5,781 nucleotides of DNA from a virus (lineage: Duplodnaviria > Heunggongvirae > Uroviricota > Caudoviricetes): IMG/VR virus record IMGVR_UViG_2744054627_000015, positions 1 through 5,781 of that record. One strand, written 5' to 3'. The notes beneath the pieces were generated by a model that saw only the letters and a program-made list of their open reading frames with translations, did no database searches and was not told where the DNA came from. This document shows, one piece after another, positions 1 to 5,781 of this stretch (positions are counted from its first letter, which is position 1; the number at the start of each line of letters is the position of its first letter). The position numbers and the translations under genes are program-made.

Positions 1-1062
1 TTCTCCCAAACCAAGGTATGCGAGAAGACCTGCTACATCCTTTCCACTCAAATGAGTCAGCGTATTGTCCAGCGGTTGTTTACCTGCCAGCGCATTAAGC
101 ATTGTCGTGGCAAAGTTCGGATCATTCCCCAGTGCCGCCGCCAGTTCGTTCAGTGTATCCAGTGCCGCAGGTGCAGAACCCACCATTGCCGCAATCGCCG
201 ATTTCACAAATGCCGTGGTGGCAATCTGTGTATTGTTGACCGACTGTGCCGCAGTAGGTGCTGTTGGCGTTCCGGTGAGTGCCGGACTCGACAGCGGCGC
301 TTTCAGTGCCAGCGCATTATTAATAGTGGTACTGAATTTCGGGTCATTGTTAATGGCTGCGGCAATTTCTTTCAGTGTGTCCAGCGTGGCTGGCGCACCG
401 TTAATCAGAGCAGTAATAGCGGCCTGAACAAACTCTGTGGTCGCAATCCGAGTGGTGTTATTTCCTGCTGCAGGCGTCGGCGCTTTTGGTTCTCCGGTAA
501 ATGTCGGATTATGTTTCTGCGCATACTGGGTATGAGGATCTTGTGCGGCAATGTGGTTTCTCATCTGGTCATCCACATACAGCTTTAATTCCAGGACTTT
601 ATCATCCACGTATTTACGGGTTGCCAGCACTACAGCAGGGTCGATTTTCAGGGTGATATTGTCCGTACTGCTGGTAATCAGCACCATGCGCACGGTCTGG
701 GTGCGCCCGCTGCCTTCAGCCAGTTGCGGCTTATAGCTTTCCGGGCAGTTGCCCACGGCAATCAATGCCCCGGACTCATCAAACAGGCCCACTTCACGTA
801 TCCACCAACCGCCCTCGTTTTCAGGGATCACCTGTTCAGCAATAATCTGGCTGCTGTTCTGCGGGTCGATATAAAGCATATTCAGCGCAGCCCGGCGTTT
901 CTCATTTACCAGTGCCGTCTGCTTTGCGTCCGGCGTTGGCAATACTCCGCCGCCATCGCCCACCGCCATATGGGTAATTTTTAGCGGCACACCGAGCGCG
1001 GCGGCGCTGGCAAGTTTCGCCGCGCCAATATCCGTCAGCAGGGTATAAAATTTTGTGCTCAT
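1..1062 (-). CDS. H: Phage tail fibre protein (P2 gpH-like), N-terminal 354 codons; the gene continues past the window start
   Basis: Minus-strand ATG at 1062..1060 overlaps the gene I stop (ATGA). Translation MSTKFYTLLTDIGAAKLASAAALGVPLKITHMAVGDGGGVLPTPDAKQTALVNE... resembles the conserved N-terminal domain of P2-family tail fibres as recalled. The frame stays open to position 1. It is absent from the ORF track only because no stop codon falls inside the window. Confidence 0.88.
   Translation of the reverse strand, partial: MSTKFYTLLTDIGAAKLASAAALGVPLKITHMAVGDGGGVLPTPDAKQTALVNEKRRAALNMLYIDPQNSSQIIAEQVIPENEGGWWIREVGLFDESGALIAVGNCPESYKPQLAEGSGRTQTVRMVLITSSTDNITLKIDPAVVLATRKYVDDKVLELKLYVDDQMRNHIAAQDPHTQYAQKHNPTFTGEPKAPTPAAGNNTTRIATTEFVQAAITALINGAPATLDTLKEIAAAINNDPKFSTTINNALALKAPLSSPALTGTPTAPTAAQSVNNTQIATTAFVKSAIAAMVGSAPAALDTLNELAAALGNDPNFATTMLNALAGKQPLDNTLTHLSGKDVAGLLAYLGLGE
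70..462 (-). repeat. Diverged tandem duplication inside tail-fibre gene H (two units of about 170 nt, 220 nt apart)
   Basis: Protein units at residues 201-257 and 276-331 align (NNTTRIATTEFVQAAITALINGAPATLDTLKEIAAAINNDPKFSTTINNALALKAPL against NNTQIATTAFVKSAIAAMVGSAPAALDTLNELAAALGNDPNFATTMLNALAGKQPL). At DNA level, 308-400 and 88-180 share runs such as ccagcgcatta. Confidence 0.6.
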
Positions 1063-1663
1063 GGATTCACTCTCATTGTGTCAATAACATGGACCGCCCC
1101 GCCTTCATGCGCGGTGCCACCGGAAATAATCGTTTCGTTGATATACGGATAGATCGTGATTTCTTCGCCAAGATAGCTGGCGGCTCCCACCCAATGCGGG
1201 CCGCTGGTCTGCAGATTGATGGACATGCCGATCATGTGGCGGCTACATGGTTTGGCATCGCTTATCAGTCGCTCAAGTTCCAGATAGGTATCTTCAGTGA
1301 TGCCCTGGTCCTGCACGCCGATATCTAGGCGAAACGTGCCCGCTGCCTCTCCGGTCTGCCACCACTCAATAATGCGGATCAGAAAGCCGAACGGCTCCAC
1401 CACCCGCCGCACGGCACTGGTGGTCCCTTTATGCTGATGAATATAAAAAGCATCCTTCACCACCTGGCGCTTGACGCTTTCTGTCCAGCCCTCGTCCCAG
1501 CGATCCACAGAGAACGCCCAGGCGAGATAAGGCAGGAAACTGACCGGACAGGTTGCCGGATTCCACAAGTCACGAAGCGGCACCTGCAGATCAGAATCCC
1601 GCTGCAGGTTTGCGCCAGTCGGCGCTCCAGTGGTGTTGAACCCGGTGGCAGCAGACTATTCAT
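1059..1663 (-). CDS. I: Baseplate assembly protein (P2 gpI-like) with an apparent 1-nt frameshift near 1598-1600; the intact body is the 174-codon frame 1059..1583
   Basis: Body frame (…LRDLWNPATCPVSFLPYLAWAFSVDRWDEGW…) resembles P2 gpI as recalled. The ATG at 1663 has a strong GGAGG (1673..1669, 5-nt spacer), sits 5 nt before the J stop, and encodes a gpI-like N-terminus (MNSLLPPGSTPLERRLAQTCSG), but in a different frame from the body. One extra C in the CCC run at 1598-1600 (G on the coding strand) would join the two. The stop overlaps the H start (ATGA). Confidence 0.72.
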
Positions 1664-2564
1664 CCGTTCCTCCGTTGGTTACGCTCCACTGCGTACATGA
1701 TGCCGCCTGTGTTTTGTTCAGGACCACATCCGCCAGAGGAGAAGCCAGCTCCACACGCTGCACACCCTCAACATGCAGGGCGGCAAAGATGGCGCTACGG
1801 CGAATATCCCGACCAAGACGCGTCTGACTGGCGATGTACTTCTGCAGGCTGGCTTTTGCCGCTGCCATTACCGGCTCTGCTTCCGGTCCCGGATAAAGAA
1901 AAATGGTGGCTTCCACGCGATACGGGATGATTTCTGCGCTGCGAACCGTAAGACGGTCAGCCACCGGGCGGACGTTCTCACTGTTCAGAGCTTTTCCCAC
2001 CACGTCCAGCAGGTCTTTTTCTGCAGTTCCATCGCCTTCGCGGCTAAGGACAGTCAGCACCACCTCTGCAGGTGCCGGGCTGGTTGCACTGGCATCCGCC
2101 ACGCGACCGTCGGCGCTTCGGGCATGAAATTCATAAGCTGCAGTTGGCCCCGCGACTGAAAGCCCTTCAAAGGCTGCAGGCACACGCAGGCGTAACGCTT
2201 CATCGCTTTCCATCACAGCTGCAACGGGCGGCACAGCGTCATTATCAGCAGGCGTCACCGTCAGGCGTTTCACGTTGTAGTTGGCAGCGAGCTGGTCAAG
2301 ATCGCCGCCCATCGCGTAAGCCACCATCACCGCCTGCGCGGCTTCGTTAATGCGCTGGCGCAGAAGCAACTCACGGTAAGCGTTCTCCTGCAACAATTTG
2401 GTGACGGGTTCAGATTCCAGTTCCAGCGTACGCATCACAGCTTCCTGCTCATCTTTCGGATGGAGCGCCACAAATTCTGCCTTACGTTCTGCAAACAGCG
2501 TTTCAAAGTCCGGCACATCCACAATCTGCGGTGCAGGCAACTGCGAAAGGTCAATCACTGCCAT
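1656..2564 (-). CDS. J: Baseplate assembly protein (P2 gpJ-like), 302 aa
   Basis: ORF-track frame 1656..2603 trimmed to the ATG at 2564, which is preceded by AGGAG (2575..2571, 6-nt spacer). N-terminus MAVIDLSQLPAPQIVDVPDFETLFAERKAEF is gpJ-like, and the length matches the 302 aa I recall for P2 gpJ. The start overlaps the 3' end of W by 14 nt. Confidence 0.9.
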   Translation of the reverse strand: MAVIDLSQLPAPQIVDVPDFETLFAERKAEFVALHPKDEQEAVMRTLELESEPVTKLLQENAYRELLLRQRINEAAQAVMVAYAMGGDLDQLAANYNVKRLTVTPADNDAVPPVAAVMESDEALRLRVPAAFEGLSVAGPTAAYEFHARSADGRVADASATSPAPAEVVLTVLSREGDGTAEKDLLDVVGKALNSENVRPVADRLTVRSAEIIPYRVEATIFLYPGPEAEPVMAAAKASLQKYIASQTRLGRDIRRSAIFAALHVEGVQRVELASPLADVVLNKTQAASCTQWSVTNGGTDE

Positions 2565-2910
2565 TCTCGGCTCCTGTTGATACGGAAAGGGAAACAGGCA
2601 CACCGTTATTACGCTGTCCGGTCAGTTCCACCACCATAGAACCGTCAAAATTGCTGTTGATGGTGATGGATTCCAGCGTCAGCCGAGGCTCCCAGCGACT
2701 CAGCGCCACATACACCGCCGACATAATCTGCAGGCGTAACGCCGGATTTTGTGGCTGGTCTATCAGCGCCGACAGCAGGGAACCATATTCACGACGGGCA
2801 ATGCGGCTACCCTGCGGCGTCAGCAGAATATCCCGCACCGACTGGCGCAGATGGTCAATATCAGTAATGGCTTTACCGCTGGTATTGTTCATCCCGATAT
2901 AAAGCGTCAT
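2551..2910 (-). CDS. W: Baseplate protein (P2 gpW-like), 119 aa
   Basis: Translation MTLYIGMNNTSGKAITDIDHLRQSVRDILLTPQGSRIARREYGSLLSALIDQPQNP... resembles P2 gpW as recalled. GGAGG (2921..2917) lies 6 nt upstream of the ATG at 2910. The ATG overlaps the V stop (ATGA). Confidence 0.9.
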   Translation of the reverse strand: MTLYIGMNNTSGKAITDIDHLRQSVRDILLTPQGSRIARREYGSLLSALIDQPQNPALRLQIMSAVYVALSRWEPRLTLESITINSNFDGSMVVELTGQRNNGVPVSLSVSTGAENGSD

Positions 2911-3485
2911 ACCGGGCCTCCGGTGGTGTCGCCACCTTTCTGGACGCCAGTATGCTGATGCGCATCAACCACGATCCCGTTAGAACTCATCGCACCGCCG
3001 CCCTGGGTAACGCCACCATTGATCACCACTTCGCTGTTAATACGTGCGCGGTCAGCCTCCAGTACAAACTCACTGGTTTTCAGGGTGATGTTGTCGACAG
3101 CCTCAATGACCATTGATTTGATGCCCCTGACATACCAGCGCCCGGTGGCGGGTTCGTATTCAAACCAGCCACCGTCAGGATATTCTGTCACGCAGGCGTC
3201 CGCCGACGTCGACGGCGGCGCGAACTGATTCGAATAGACAGCGGGCAACGCAAAGGCGGTTTCCAGATTGCCACCCAGACTCAGCAGCACCACCTGCTCA
3301 CCTTCCGATGGTTTCCACCATGTGCGGGCATTACCCGCACGCAGCGTCAGCCAGCTGATCCAGTTGGTTTCAAGGTCGCCTGTTTTCACCCGGCAAAGCC
3401 AGTTCTCCCGGTCCACTTCGGTGACTACACCAGTGCGAATCAGGTTGGTGATAAGGCGCATGATTTCGGTTAAATGTGCGTTCAT
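2907..3485 (-). CDS. V: Baseplate spike / tail protein (P2 gpV-like), 192 aa from the ATG at 3485
   Basis: Translation MNAHLTEIMRLITNLIRTGVVTEVD...KGGDTTGGPV aligns with the recalled gpV N-terminus (MNTLANIQELARALRNMIRTG...) and the C-terminal GG-rich tail. The ORF-track start at 3542 adds 19 residues with no counterpart in gpV, so the internal ATG is preferred. None of the candidate starts has a convincing Shine-Dalgarno. Confidence 0.82.
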   Translation of the reverse strand: MNAHLTEIMRLITNLIRTGVVTEVDRENWLCRVKTGDLETNWISWLTLRAGNARTWWKPSEGEQVVLLSLGGNLETAFALPAVYSNQFAPPSTSADACVTEYPDGGWFEYEPATGRWYVRGIKSMVIEAVDNITLKTSEFVLEADRARINSEVVINGGVTQGGGAMSSNGIVVDAHQHTGVQKGGDTTGGPV

Positions 3486-3530
3486 GAGAAAAACTAACCG
3501 CCATTGCAAACGCAATCGAGTAGATAGGAA

Positions 3531-3548
3531 TGTTTGATTCATGGCACA
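3531..3548 (-). promoter_or_regulatory. Candidate Ogr/Delta-type late-activator box (TGT-N12-ACA) upstream of V
   Basis: Minus strand reads TGTgccatgaatcaaACA, centred about 54 nt upstream of the V ATG. P2-family late promoters carry a TGT-N12-ACA dyad at about -55 from the transcription start, and V is the first gene of a late operon in P2. It is a single occurrence that could arise by chance, and the spacing to the ATG is tight. Confidence 0.3.
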
Positions 3549-3576
3549 ATACGTTGCTTACTTTTAAGGATATAAA

Positions 3577-4021
3577 ATGAAAGACAATTTAAATCTTCTT
3601 ATAAAAAATTAATAAGAAAGGCATTTCCTGAATTTAGCAATAAGGTAACATGGACTTTACTCACTGCAGGGATCGGTATTCTTGCACTACCTGCACCCAC
3701 ATATTTATTATTCGTAAACCTTATAATTGATTTTTACAACAAAACAACTAATTCAGAAATAAGCTTCTTAAGATTGATAGCATTACACCAAGTAGTGGGG
3801 TTGCTTTAACTTTAATTCTATCCGGGCTAGTCTTTCACCTATTAATAAAAGTCCCCCATATATACCAAGAAATTCTAAAAGAGAATAACCAAAAAGAAAT
3901 ACAGGAAAGAAAAAGAGTAGCAGACGTTAAACTTTATGAGGCATTTATTGATATTCTACCAACAACCTCGTTATCAATTGAATTCTTAAAAGACCATAAT
4001 TTTGAAAACTCCCTATCATGA
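3577..4021 (+). pseudogene. Disrupted ORF for a predicted two-transmembrane protein (about 148 aa if two single-base homopolymer deletions are repaired)
   Basis: ATG at 3577 with AAGGA (3566-3570, 6-nt spacer) opens an 11-codon ORF in frame 1. Frame 0 is then stop-free across 3576..3806 and frame 2 across 3752..4018, with no usable start codon in either. Adding one A to the A6 run (3603-3608) and one G to the G4 run (3797-3800) yields a continuous protein with two hydrophobic helices and a charged C-terminal tail. Confidence 0.4.
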
Positions 4022-4057
4022 TAATAATACAAAAGATATTAGTAATCTTGAATACGG

Positions 4058-4336
4058 GTGGGTCATGCAGATCAACATTTTCATGACAATGAAATTGAAG
4101 ATAAAGCCACTCATCTTTACAGTGAAATAATAAAGTTTAATTATTTTCTCGCTTATAAATCGCACAATATCAATAACTATATGTTTAGCATGCTTACTGA
4201 CAGAGATCGAGCTATGGTGATGGAATTACTACCTCAAACAAAGGAAAATATAAAAATAGCCAATGAGTGGAGTTCTACAATTCATCAGCTTTACTGTGAC
4301 TTTATCTCCACATGTAGGAATAACTTAGCCATATAA
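4058..4336 (+). CDS. Hypothetical protein (92 aa from GTG at 4058, or 51 aa from ATG at 4181); island cargo of unknown function
   Basis: ORF-track frame, same frame as the upstream disrupted ORF and separated from it by a cluster of stops at 4019-4051. It is Asn/Ile/Lys-rich, as expected for AT-rich DNA. No good RBS precedes either start. It ends at TAA 4334-4336, 14 nt from the convergent S stop. Confidence 0.4.
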   Translation: MGHADQHFHDNEIEDKATHLYSEIIKFNYFLAYKSHNINNYMFSMLTDRDRAMVMELLPQTKENIKIANEWSSTIHQLYCDFISTCRNNLAI

Positions 4337-4350
4337 ATCATATGCTGTAG

Positions 4351-4596
4351 TTAATTAAGACAAGTAGCGAAAAAAATATCACGAGTTATCATTTCCGCTT
4401 CGTCGTTAACACCCAAAAGGCGACGCTCTGCGTAACGGACCTCCGGCCCTTTGCGACTGACGCGATCGCGCAGGCCGTAATGGTGAACACGGGCAATGCG
4501 CTGCACCTTACCTTCAAACTGCACGCTGGCAGAATCGGCGCTGGCGGCAGTTTTCAGATATTTTGTGGTGCGTAGCTTTGCAAACATCTGACGTTT
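4351..4596 (-). pseudogene. S: 3' fragment of the tail-completion / virion-morphogenesis gene (P2 gpS-like), truncated at its 5' side by the IS
   Basis: Translation ...KRQMFAKLRTTKYLKTAASADSASVQFEGKVQRIARVHHYGLRDRVSRKGPEVRYAERRLLG... fits my recollection of the gpS / Mu gpG family (MFxKLRTxxYLK ... IARVHH-GLRDR). An in-frame stop at 4621-4623 lies inside the IS end. Only about 80 of the expected 150 codons are present. Confidence 0.55.
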
Positions 4597-4649
4597 TGTA
4601 ATGACCCACTGAAATCCTGCTCAGGTCATAATGAGTGGAGATCACAGAC

Positions 4650-5003
4650 ATGAGCATCACGATGGACGAAGAAATCAAACGTTGGACGGCCAAGCGCAAG
4701 TCCGCCTTGGTCATGGAAATCATTCAGGGCAAGACCACCGTCGCCGAAGCGGCTCGAGCCTTTGATTTGCCGCCCTCCGAGATTGAAGAATGGGTAGATG
4801 ACGCCAAACGGGGCATGGAAAACGCCTTACGGGCCAAGCCACTGGATATTCGCGAGCAGTACGAGAAGCAGCTCAAGGAACTCCAGGAAGCTTATGGCGA
4901 GGCCATGCTGGAGTTACGCGCCAGAAAAAGCTGGCCTCCCTGCTGGGCGAGGACGACAGATAGTCGCCGATGTTCAGCAGGGATTACGCGCAGAAGGTAT
5001 TGA
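4650..5003 (+). CDS. IS3-family transposase OrfA (HTH DNA-binding protein), with an aberrant C-terminal extension in this copy
   Basis: ATG at 4650 preceded by GGAG (4637-4640, 9-nt spacer). Translation MSITMDEEIKRWTAKRKSALVMEIIQGKTTVAEAARAFDLPPSEIEEWVDD...EAMLELRARK parallels IS2 OrfA (...[23 protein letters not shown]). The canonical OrfA tail KKLASLLGEDDR* is in the -1 frame after the A-run at 4925-4929. The ORF-track GTG start at 4635 was not used. Confidence 0.8.
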   Translation: MSITMDEEIKRWTAKRKSALVMEIIQGKTTVAEAARAFDLPPSEIEEWVDDAKRGMENALRAKPLDIREQYEKQLKELQEAYGEAMLELRARKSWPPCWARTTDSRRCSAGITRRRY

Positions 5004-5781
5004 TGTCTCCGTCAGCAAGCTCTGCCGCTGGTTTGGCCTGCCGCGTCGTAGTTGGTACTACCGCAGCGTCAAGGCCGCGCCCAAGCTTCAGGAGCATCTG
5101 GTCACCCCGATCAAAAACATGATTGAGGAGAACCCATCGTTCGGTTACCGGACGGTTGCAGCCCTGTTGGGGTTCAACAAGAACACGGTACAGCGCATCT
5201 TCCAGCTCAAGGGCTGGCAAGTTCGCAAGCGTCCGGTTGGGTTTCGCCCCCGGATCCAGGCCCTGCCTTCGGTGGCCTCAGCGCCCAACCAACGCTGGGC
5301 GACGGACCTATGCCGGATCTGGGCTGGTCGCGATGGCTGGTGTTCCTTGGCGCTGGTGATTGATTGCCATACCCGTGAACTACTGGGATGGCATCTCTCG
5401 CGCAGTGGTAAATCGAAAACGGCCGAGGCAGCGCTGGAGCAAGCCTTAATTGCTCGCTTCGGCAGCTTGGGACGAGTTGCATCGCCGTTTTTGTTACGTA
5501 GCGACAATGGGTTGGTGTTTACCAGCCGCAACTACACAGCACTGGTGAAGAGCTATGGGTTGCAGCAGGAGTTCATCACGCCGTACACGCCGGAACAAAA
5601 CGGCATGGTCGAGCGGGTGATCAGAACGCTCAAGGAGCAGTGTGCCCATCGGCAGAGGTTCGAGACCTTGCAGCATGCCAGTCGGGTGATTGGCGACTGG
5701 ATCCAGTTTTACAACCAGAAGCGTCCTCACCAGGCGCTAAAGATGAAAACACCGGCGCAGGCCTATGCCGAAGCCGCTTAG
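4927..5781 (+). CDS. IS3-family transposase OrfB (DDE catalytic domain); here in the +1 frame relative to OrfA
   Basis: DDE(K) signature: D at 5305-5307 (WATDL), D at 5503-5505 (RSDNG), E at 5611-5613 followed by K seven residues later (ERVIRTLK). No ATG near the 5' end, as is typical when OrfB is made only as an OrfAB fusion. The frame is open from 4798, but the part upstream of the A-run overlaps OrfA and is not considered coding. Stop TAG at 5779-5781. Confidence 0.82.
   Translation, partial: KAGLPAGRGRQIVADVQQGLRAEGIDVSVSKLCRWFGLPRRSWYYRSVKAAPKLQEHLVTPIKNMIEENPSFGYRTVAALLGFNKNTVQRIFQLKGWQVRKRPVGFRPRIQALPSVASAPNQRWATDLCRIWAGRDGWCSLALVIDCHTRELLGWHLSRSGKSKTAEAALEQALIARFGSLGRVASPFLLRSDNGLVFTSRNYTALVKSYGLQQEFITPYTPEQNGMVERVIRTLKEQCAHRQRFETLQHASRVIGDWIQFYNQKRPHQALKMKTPAQAYAEAA

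Follow-up and report, generated by a model that had tools for sequence, protein, structure and literature searches.

Five adenines at the frameshift site of a prophage-borne ISKpn40 copy, probably a one-base homopolymer undercall

Is a transposase gene whose frameshift site is one base short a dead gene, a gene recoded in another way, or a gene that was misread? The question is raised by the window analyzed here, the whole stretch of 5,781 nucleotides that forms positions 1 to 5,781 of the Caudoviricetes record IMGVR_UViG_2744054627_000015. Most of it is a block of P2-like prophage genes, and its end is occupied by an insertion sequence (IS) of the IS3 family, in which the run of adenines where the ribosome would be expected to slip has five bases instead of six. 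The reading preferred here, with a probability of about 0.9, is that this is a normal ISKpn40 with an A6G slip site that was undercalled by one base. The miscall is inferred from the pattern of differences in the sequence. The features of the window are collected in Table 1.

Table 1. Features of the window; positions are counted from its first nucleotide
Feature	Position	Strand	Remarks
P2-like prophage tail/baseplate block	1..4596	-	Tail fibre, gpI, gpJ, gpW, gpV, AT-rich moron (+ strand), 3' part of virion morphogenesis gene
Left 1185 bp of ISKpn40 (full element 1213 bp)	4597..5781	+	Matches other copies except for one missing A
Tip of left terminal inverted repeat, TGTAATGACCCA	4597..4608	+	A 12-nt perfect complement closes full copies
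OrfA as written	4650..5003	+	117 aa, last 24 codons aberrant; Pfam HTH_Tnp_1 E = 7.7e-8
OrfA with the missing A restored	from 4650, TAG at 4961-4963	+	104 aa
Open OrfB frame, DDE/rve catalytic domain	4798..5781	+	+1 to OrfA as written, -1 in A6 copies
Slippery site	4925..4930	+	A5G in the window; virtually all other copies have A6G (A AAA AAG in the zero frame of OrfA)
Predicted stem-loop, presumed frameshift stimulator	4931..4993	+	Core helix 4937-4949 with 4971-4983, from 6 nt past the heptamer

As written, positions 4922-4930 of the window read CAGAAAAAG, with the five A at 4925-4929. The ATG of OrfA sets its frame (4650 mod 3 = 0), and the codons at the slip site are GCC AGA AAA AGC TGG. 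This means that the heptamer A AAA AAG is absent from the zero frame of OrfA, and A AAA AGC stands there instead. OrfA then runs on into an aberrant tail, SWPPCWARTTDSRRCSAGITRRRY, of 24 codons (SWPPCW...RRRY) that stops at 5001-5003, and the OrfB frame, with its stop at 5779-5781 (mod 3 = 1), is displaced by +1. The initial annotation had described both the five-A run and the two frames in just this way, and the sequence and the coordinates of the reading frames agree with it. It had also noted that a -1 slip could not produce OrfAB from the sequence as given, which holds, the window being one A short.

The effect of a single added base is considerable. When one A is inserted, OrfA ends in RARKKLASLLGEDDR followed by a stop, and a -1 slip on the A AAA AAG of the restored sequence gives an OrfAB of 377 amino acids that reads through RARKKAGLPAGRGRQIVADVQQ; this is the six-A outcome that had been predicted. 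RefSeq annotates the same 104-aa OrfA (WP_039026396.1) in copies with six A. The reconstructed OrfAB scores 257.9 bits against the NCBIfam model transpos_IS3 (cut-off 160) and covers profile positions 3-368 of 369 collinearly (366/369). The window element has the overlapping pair of an OrfA with a helix-turn-helix (HTH) domain and a DDE (rve) OrfB, which is a feature of the IS3 family, and OrfB matches the Pfam models rve (E = 1.2e-19) and rve_3 (E = 2.3e-22). The assignment to this family in the initial annotation is borne out by the HTH_Tnp_1 and rve domains together with the OrfAB match. The family also has OrfB at -1, and this is how it lies in the A6 copies L001, L003, L020, and L006-L009, unlike in the window copy. 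The +1 position of OrfB in the window is most likely due to a one-base undercall.

By its sequence, the element is ISKpn40 of the IS3 family. The name rests on a match of 100%, bar one A, to the IS found in the mcr-3.19-dgkA context and named in PMC10232291. The IS in this mcr-3.19-dgkA-IS context is called ISKpn40 in both PMC10232291 and PMC5882877, and direct repeats of 4 bp have been reported for it (PMC10232291). The boundaries and the length of 1213 bp were set by comparing three independent insertion contexts. The element ends TGTAATGACCCA...TGGGTCATTACA in L001, L002, L003, and L005, with 4-bp target duplications of GTTT in L001 and GGCG in L005; these are full copies elsewhere, the right end lying outside the window, which closes with the stop codon of OrfB, 27 bp before that end. 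Terminal inverted repeats of the form TG...CA and short target duplications of 3-5 bp are thus found as in other IS3-family members, the right repeat and the duplications being those of full copies elsewhere. A megablast search detected the same element, at an identity of at least 99.8%, in 49 records of E. coli and in 92 of plasmids. The plasmid hosts belong to Escherichia, Salmonella, Klebsiella, and Aeromonas, and in pCP53-mcr the element lies directly downstream of mcr-3.19-dgkA.

The length of the run in other copies can be read directly, and six A is the norm for ISKpn40. A probe of 81 nt carrying the A5 form matched 102 places in 49 records of complete E. coli genomes. Only one of these places matched it at 100%, in the record pSEV4_3_mcr3.4, and among the matches listed all of the other full-length rows (47/47) aligned at 98.8% over 82 bases, which amounts to one extra base. 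L001, L003, and L020 were read directly and have six A. In the plasmid collection, 83 of the 90 records had no A5 copy. When one genome per species was scanned for the exact pattern, with runs of 4 to 8 bases allowed, four loci were returned, and every one of them has six A. One is a copy in Aeromonas, and the other three are relatives in the Comamonadaceae, in a Brachymonas metagenome-assembled genome (MAG; L006), a Limnohabitans MAG (L007), and Curvibacter sp. CHRR-16 (L008), with overall identities of 74-76%. The initial annotation had taken A AAA AAG, with OrfB at -1, as the normal state, and this is what the other copies have. The comparison with other copies that it had proposed was thus carried out and returned six A elsewhere; the outcome that would have counted against it, five A as the rule, was not seen.

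Conservation around the slip site goes beyond the run itself. A block of 37 nt around the heptamer is unchanged in the three Comamonadaceae relatives, and 40-column windows at the slip site reach a conservation of 0.93-0.94, the highest in the element, compared to about 0.75 overall (a wrongly placed row for the Aeromonas segment was left out of the first DNA alignment). In these relatives, about 75% identical, the 11-bp stem downstream is invariant in both of its 11-nt arms. The slip site is under constraint, as the top conservation of these windows and the unvarying stem arms show. The relatives differ from ISKpn40 in the loop and in the OrfA stop, which is TGA rather than TAG. They also give a hint as to the hosts of this element family beyond the Enterobacterales and Aeromonas.

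The predicted stem-loop folds with a minimum free energy of -35.1 kcal/mol (z = -3.42), and none of 200 shuffled sequences folds as well. Covariation in the stem-loop amounts to zero compensatory changes, the arms being invariant among the four sequences compared. A scan of the IS part against Rfam returned no frameshift-element family, only chance-level hits to mir-92 and HIV-1_SD. In the consensus fold (alifold), an inverted repeat of 5 bp, GCCAG...CUGGC, brackets the A-run at 4920-4935 of the window. In this model, the heptamer could lie within the loop of a small hairpin at 4920-4935, which would form in competition with the large stem-loop's outer helix.

The prophage part of the window serves as a control on the base calls. 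Its nearest relative is the E. coli HH194M prophage, from which positions 1-4596 of the window differ by a single substitution and by seven indels of one base each, six deletions and one insertion. The indels are at 1594, 3488, 3602, 3763, 4011, 4059, and 4369, and every one of them is inside a homopolymer (AAA, A6, A7, CC, CC, G4, and A8), for which P = 0.004 if indels were placed at random. Each of the three runs of at least 6 nt in the reference (A6, A7, and A8) is one base short in the window; if seven indels were placed at random, three or more would hit such runs with a probability of about 3e-6. In the ISKpn40 consensus, the slip site is the sole run of at least 6 nt, so that the long runs that are short by one come to four of four. 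The length in the reference is shared by eight independent complete genomes, which have 1201 bases where the window, at 3400-4596, has 1197; the window is the outlier.

These indels also have an effect on the genes. For example, gpI, which is intact in the reference, is split by one or more of them into overlapping open reading frames at 1457-1663 and 1059-1583. An AT-rich hypothetical gene at about 3577-4336, likewise intact in the reference, is fragmented. The breaks in both genes probably stem from the assembly and do not mark pseudogenes. The AT-rich gene (window 3577-4336; 4179-4940 in L004) codes for 253 amino acids on the plus strand, opposite to the two genes that flank it, baseplate gene V and the virion-morphogenesis gene. 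It has a GC content of 0.315 compared to about 0.55, and its position is a typical one for a moron. Searches with Pfam and PADLOC gave no match for it.

The age of the copy has a bearing on what may have happened to it. ISKpn40 starts at 4597 and cuts a P2-like virion-morphogenesis (gpS-like) gene, of which the 3' part is left at 4351-4596 on the minus strand; the insertion probably disables the prophage. The uninterrupted prophage of eight complete E. coli genomes matches the window up to 4596, and the junction of prophage and IS at 4596/4597 is absent from the 5426 complete E. coli genomes searched. Nor was the window's flank found on the 10 contigs read that encode the exact aberrant OrfA of 117 amino acids. 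Bar the missing A, the copy equals the consensus throughout its 1185 bp. Since the copy is otherwise the consensus and its site is unique among those 5426 genomes, the transposition was recent. A recent insertion in turn needed working OrfAB expression, and therefore a working frameshift site, so a real deletion would have to be later than the insertion.

Such a deletion is the first alternative to be weighed. One base would have been lost from the slippery run after insertion, leaving a frameshift-dead ISKpn40 with a 117-aa OrfA that carries an aberrant tail, no OrfAB, and mobility only with transposase supplied in trans. The given sequence does read A5, and a true loss from A6 to A5 would look identical to a miscall. 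Homopolymer runs are also hotspots of real mutation by replication slippage, and some of the public A5 copies (L018, L015, L005, and L002) have no other indel in the IS and may be real A5 alleles. Even so, a genuine deletion is unlikely. It would have to be set against seven further homopolymer indels and one substitution in the same window, with every run of at least 6 nt one base short, and an IS that otherwise equals the consensus at a unique site has had very little time for mutation. The initial annotation had concluded that the copy is probably transposition-defective unless the base call is wrong. With homopolymer indels across the whole window, its escape clause is far likelier, and the defect does not stand as the leading conclusion. 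The indels of the window, that of the slip site included, are best taken as base-calling errors rather than mutations because indels outnumber substitutions 7:1, are confined to homopolymers, and affect runs of 2-3 nt as well. A mismatch-repair mutator was also considered as their source and was rejected, since many transitions would be expected of it, compared to the one substitution in 4.6 kb, and runs of 2-3 nt are affected too.

It is also conceivable, if highly improbable, that A5 is a real allele that still functions, with the ribosome shifting by +1 or -2 to make OrfAB, or with the RNA polymerase adding an A as it slips. The whole of the support for this is that OrfB is open and intact in the +1 frame and that the downstream stem-loop is intact. 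To our knowledge, A AAA AGC is no +1 shift site, and the A site holds neither a rare codon nor a stop codon. Transcriptional slippage is known to be productive mainly on runs of about 7-9 bases or more. Against a functional A5, six A is strictly conserved even in relatives that are about 75% identical, whereas the A5 copies are sporadic and accompanied by other errors. The preferred reading remains a miscall: in the A5 of the window, the assembly would have dropped one base from a homopolymer, as is typical of a long-read consensus. The DNA itself very probably carries six A and, with them, a frameshift cassette that is normal and functional. ISKpn40 would then obtain OrfAB, its transposase, through programmed -1 frameshifting of the ribosome at A AAA AAG, presumably aided by the downstream stem-loop.

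Other public A5 copies have much in common with the window. The exact aberrant OrfA of 117 amino acids is encoded on 18 contigs, of which ten were read, and several of the ten are long canu-style "tig" contigs with visibly fragmented genes. The A5 recurs along with C5->C4 at IS position 652 and T5->T4 at position 893, as well as with errors at CCAGG (Dcm) sites at IS positions 287-289 and 663-664. One pair of sister plasmids in the same context illustrates this. The slip site has six A in pSEV1_3_mcr3.4 and five in pSEV4_3_mcr3.4; the two differ only by such small changes, and mcr-3 is flagged with "internal stop" in the latter. Where databases annotate ISKpn40 as "frameshifted", a systematic artefact of long reads is the likely cause. 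In L010-L014, L016, L017, and L019, recurrent errors are seen at ISKpn40 positions 287-289, 652, 663-666, 826-829, and 893. L012 (CP050731.1, 5948-12354) has full and partial copies of ISKpn40 nested in both orientations within 6 kb, with A5 and A6 calls side by side in one record. The flanks of the short A5 Logan contigs L015 and L016 had no match among E. coli genomes, these contigs being from something other than E. coli.

The biological weight of the locus is small, the element being an ordinary, well-known one and its oddity a probable artefact. If the deletion were real, this would be an ordinary inactivated IS copy, and only a functional A5 would mean that one IS had naturally changed the direction of its frameshift. 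The practical lesson is one of caution. The apparent frameshifts in the window, at the slip site, in gpI, and in the AT-rich moron, should not be read as pseudogenes or recoding before they are confirmed at the level of reads, because every homopolymer of at least 6 nt in the window is one base short. The same caution applies to the annotations of a "frameshifted transposase" in ISKpn40 in some public assemblies.

How the window compares to known systems can be summarized as follows. It shares with the ISKpn40 next to mcr-3-dgkA 1185 of 1186 aligned positions, compared to the copy in pCP53-mcr and about 100 others. It differs from the copies next to mcr-3-dgkA in being one A short, in lying in a P2-like prophage gene, and in having its last 27 bp outside the window. 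The 4-bp duplications of the full copies described here agree with the reported 4-bp direct repeats of ISKpn40 (PMC10232291).

With the homopolymer errors of long-read assemblies, the window shares indels that are found only in homopolymers and are mostly deletions, long runs that are all affected, broken conserved genes, and indels that far exceed substitutions. Dcm-site (CCAGG) errors accompany other A5 copies, and the assignment of the window to this class of error is circumstantial.

The frameshift cassette itself has well-known counterparts. IS911, IS3, and IS150 use a programmed -1 frameshift on A AAA AAG together with a downstream structure. ISKpn40 with six A shares with them the heptamer in the zero frame of OrfA, OrfB at -1, an OrfA stop shortly downstream, and a stable predicted stem-loop 6 nt past the heptamer. 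The difference is that frameshifting in ISKpn40 is assumed from its family, and its structure is a predicted one, conserved without covariation and without an Rfam family. By analogy, ISKpn40 would frameshift as IS911, IS3, and IS150 do. Judged by its sequence, the A6 form is a textbook -1 frameshift cassette of the IS3 family, and the copy in the window is that cassette written one A short.
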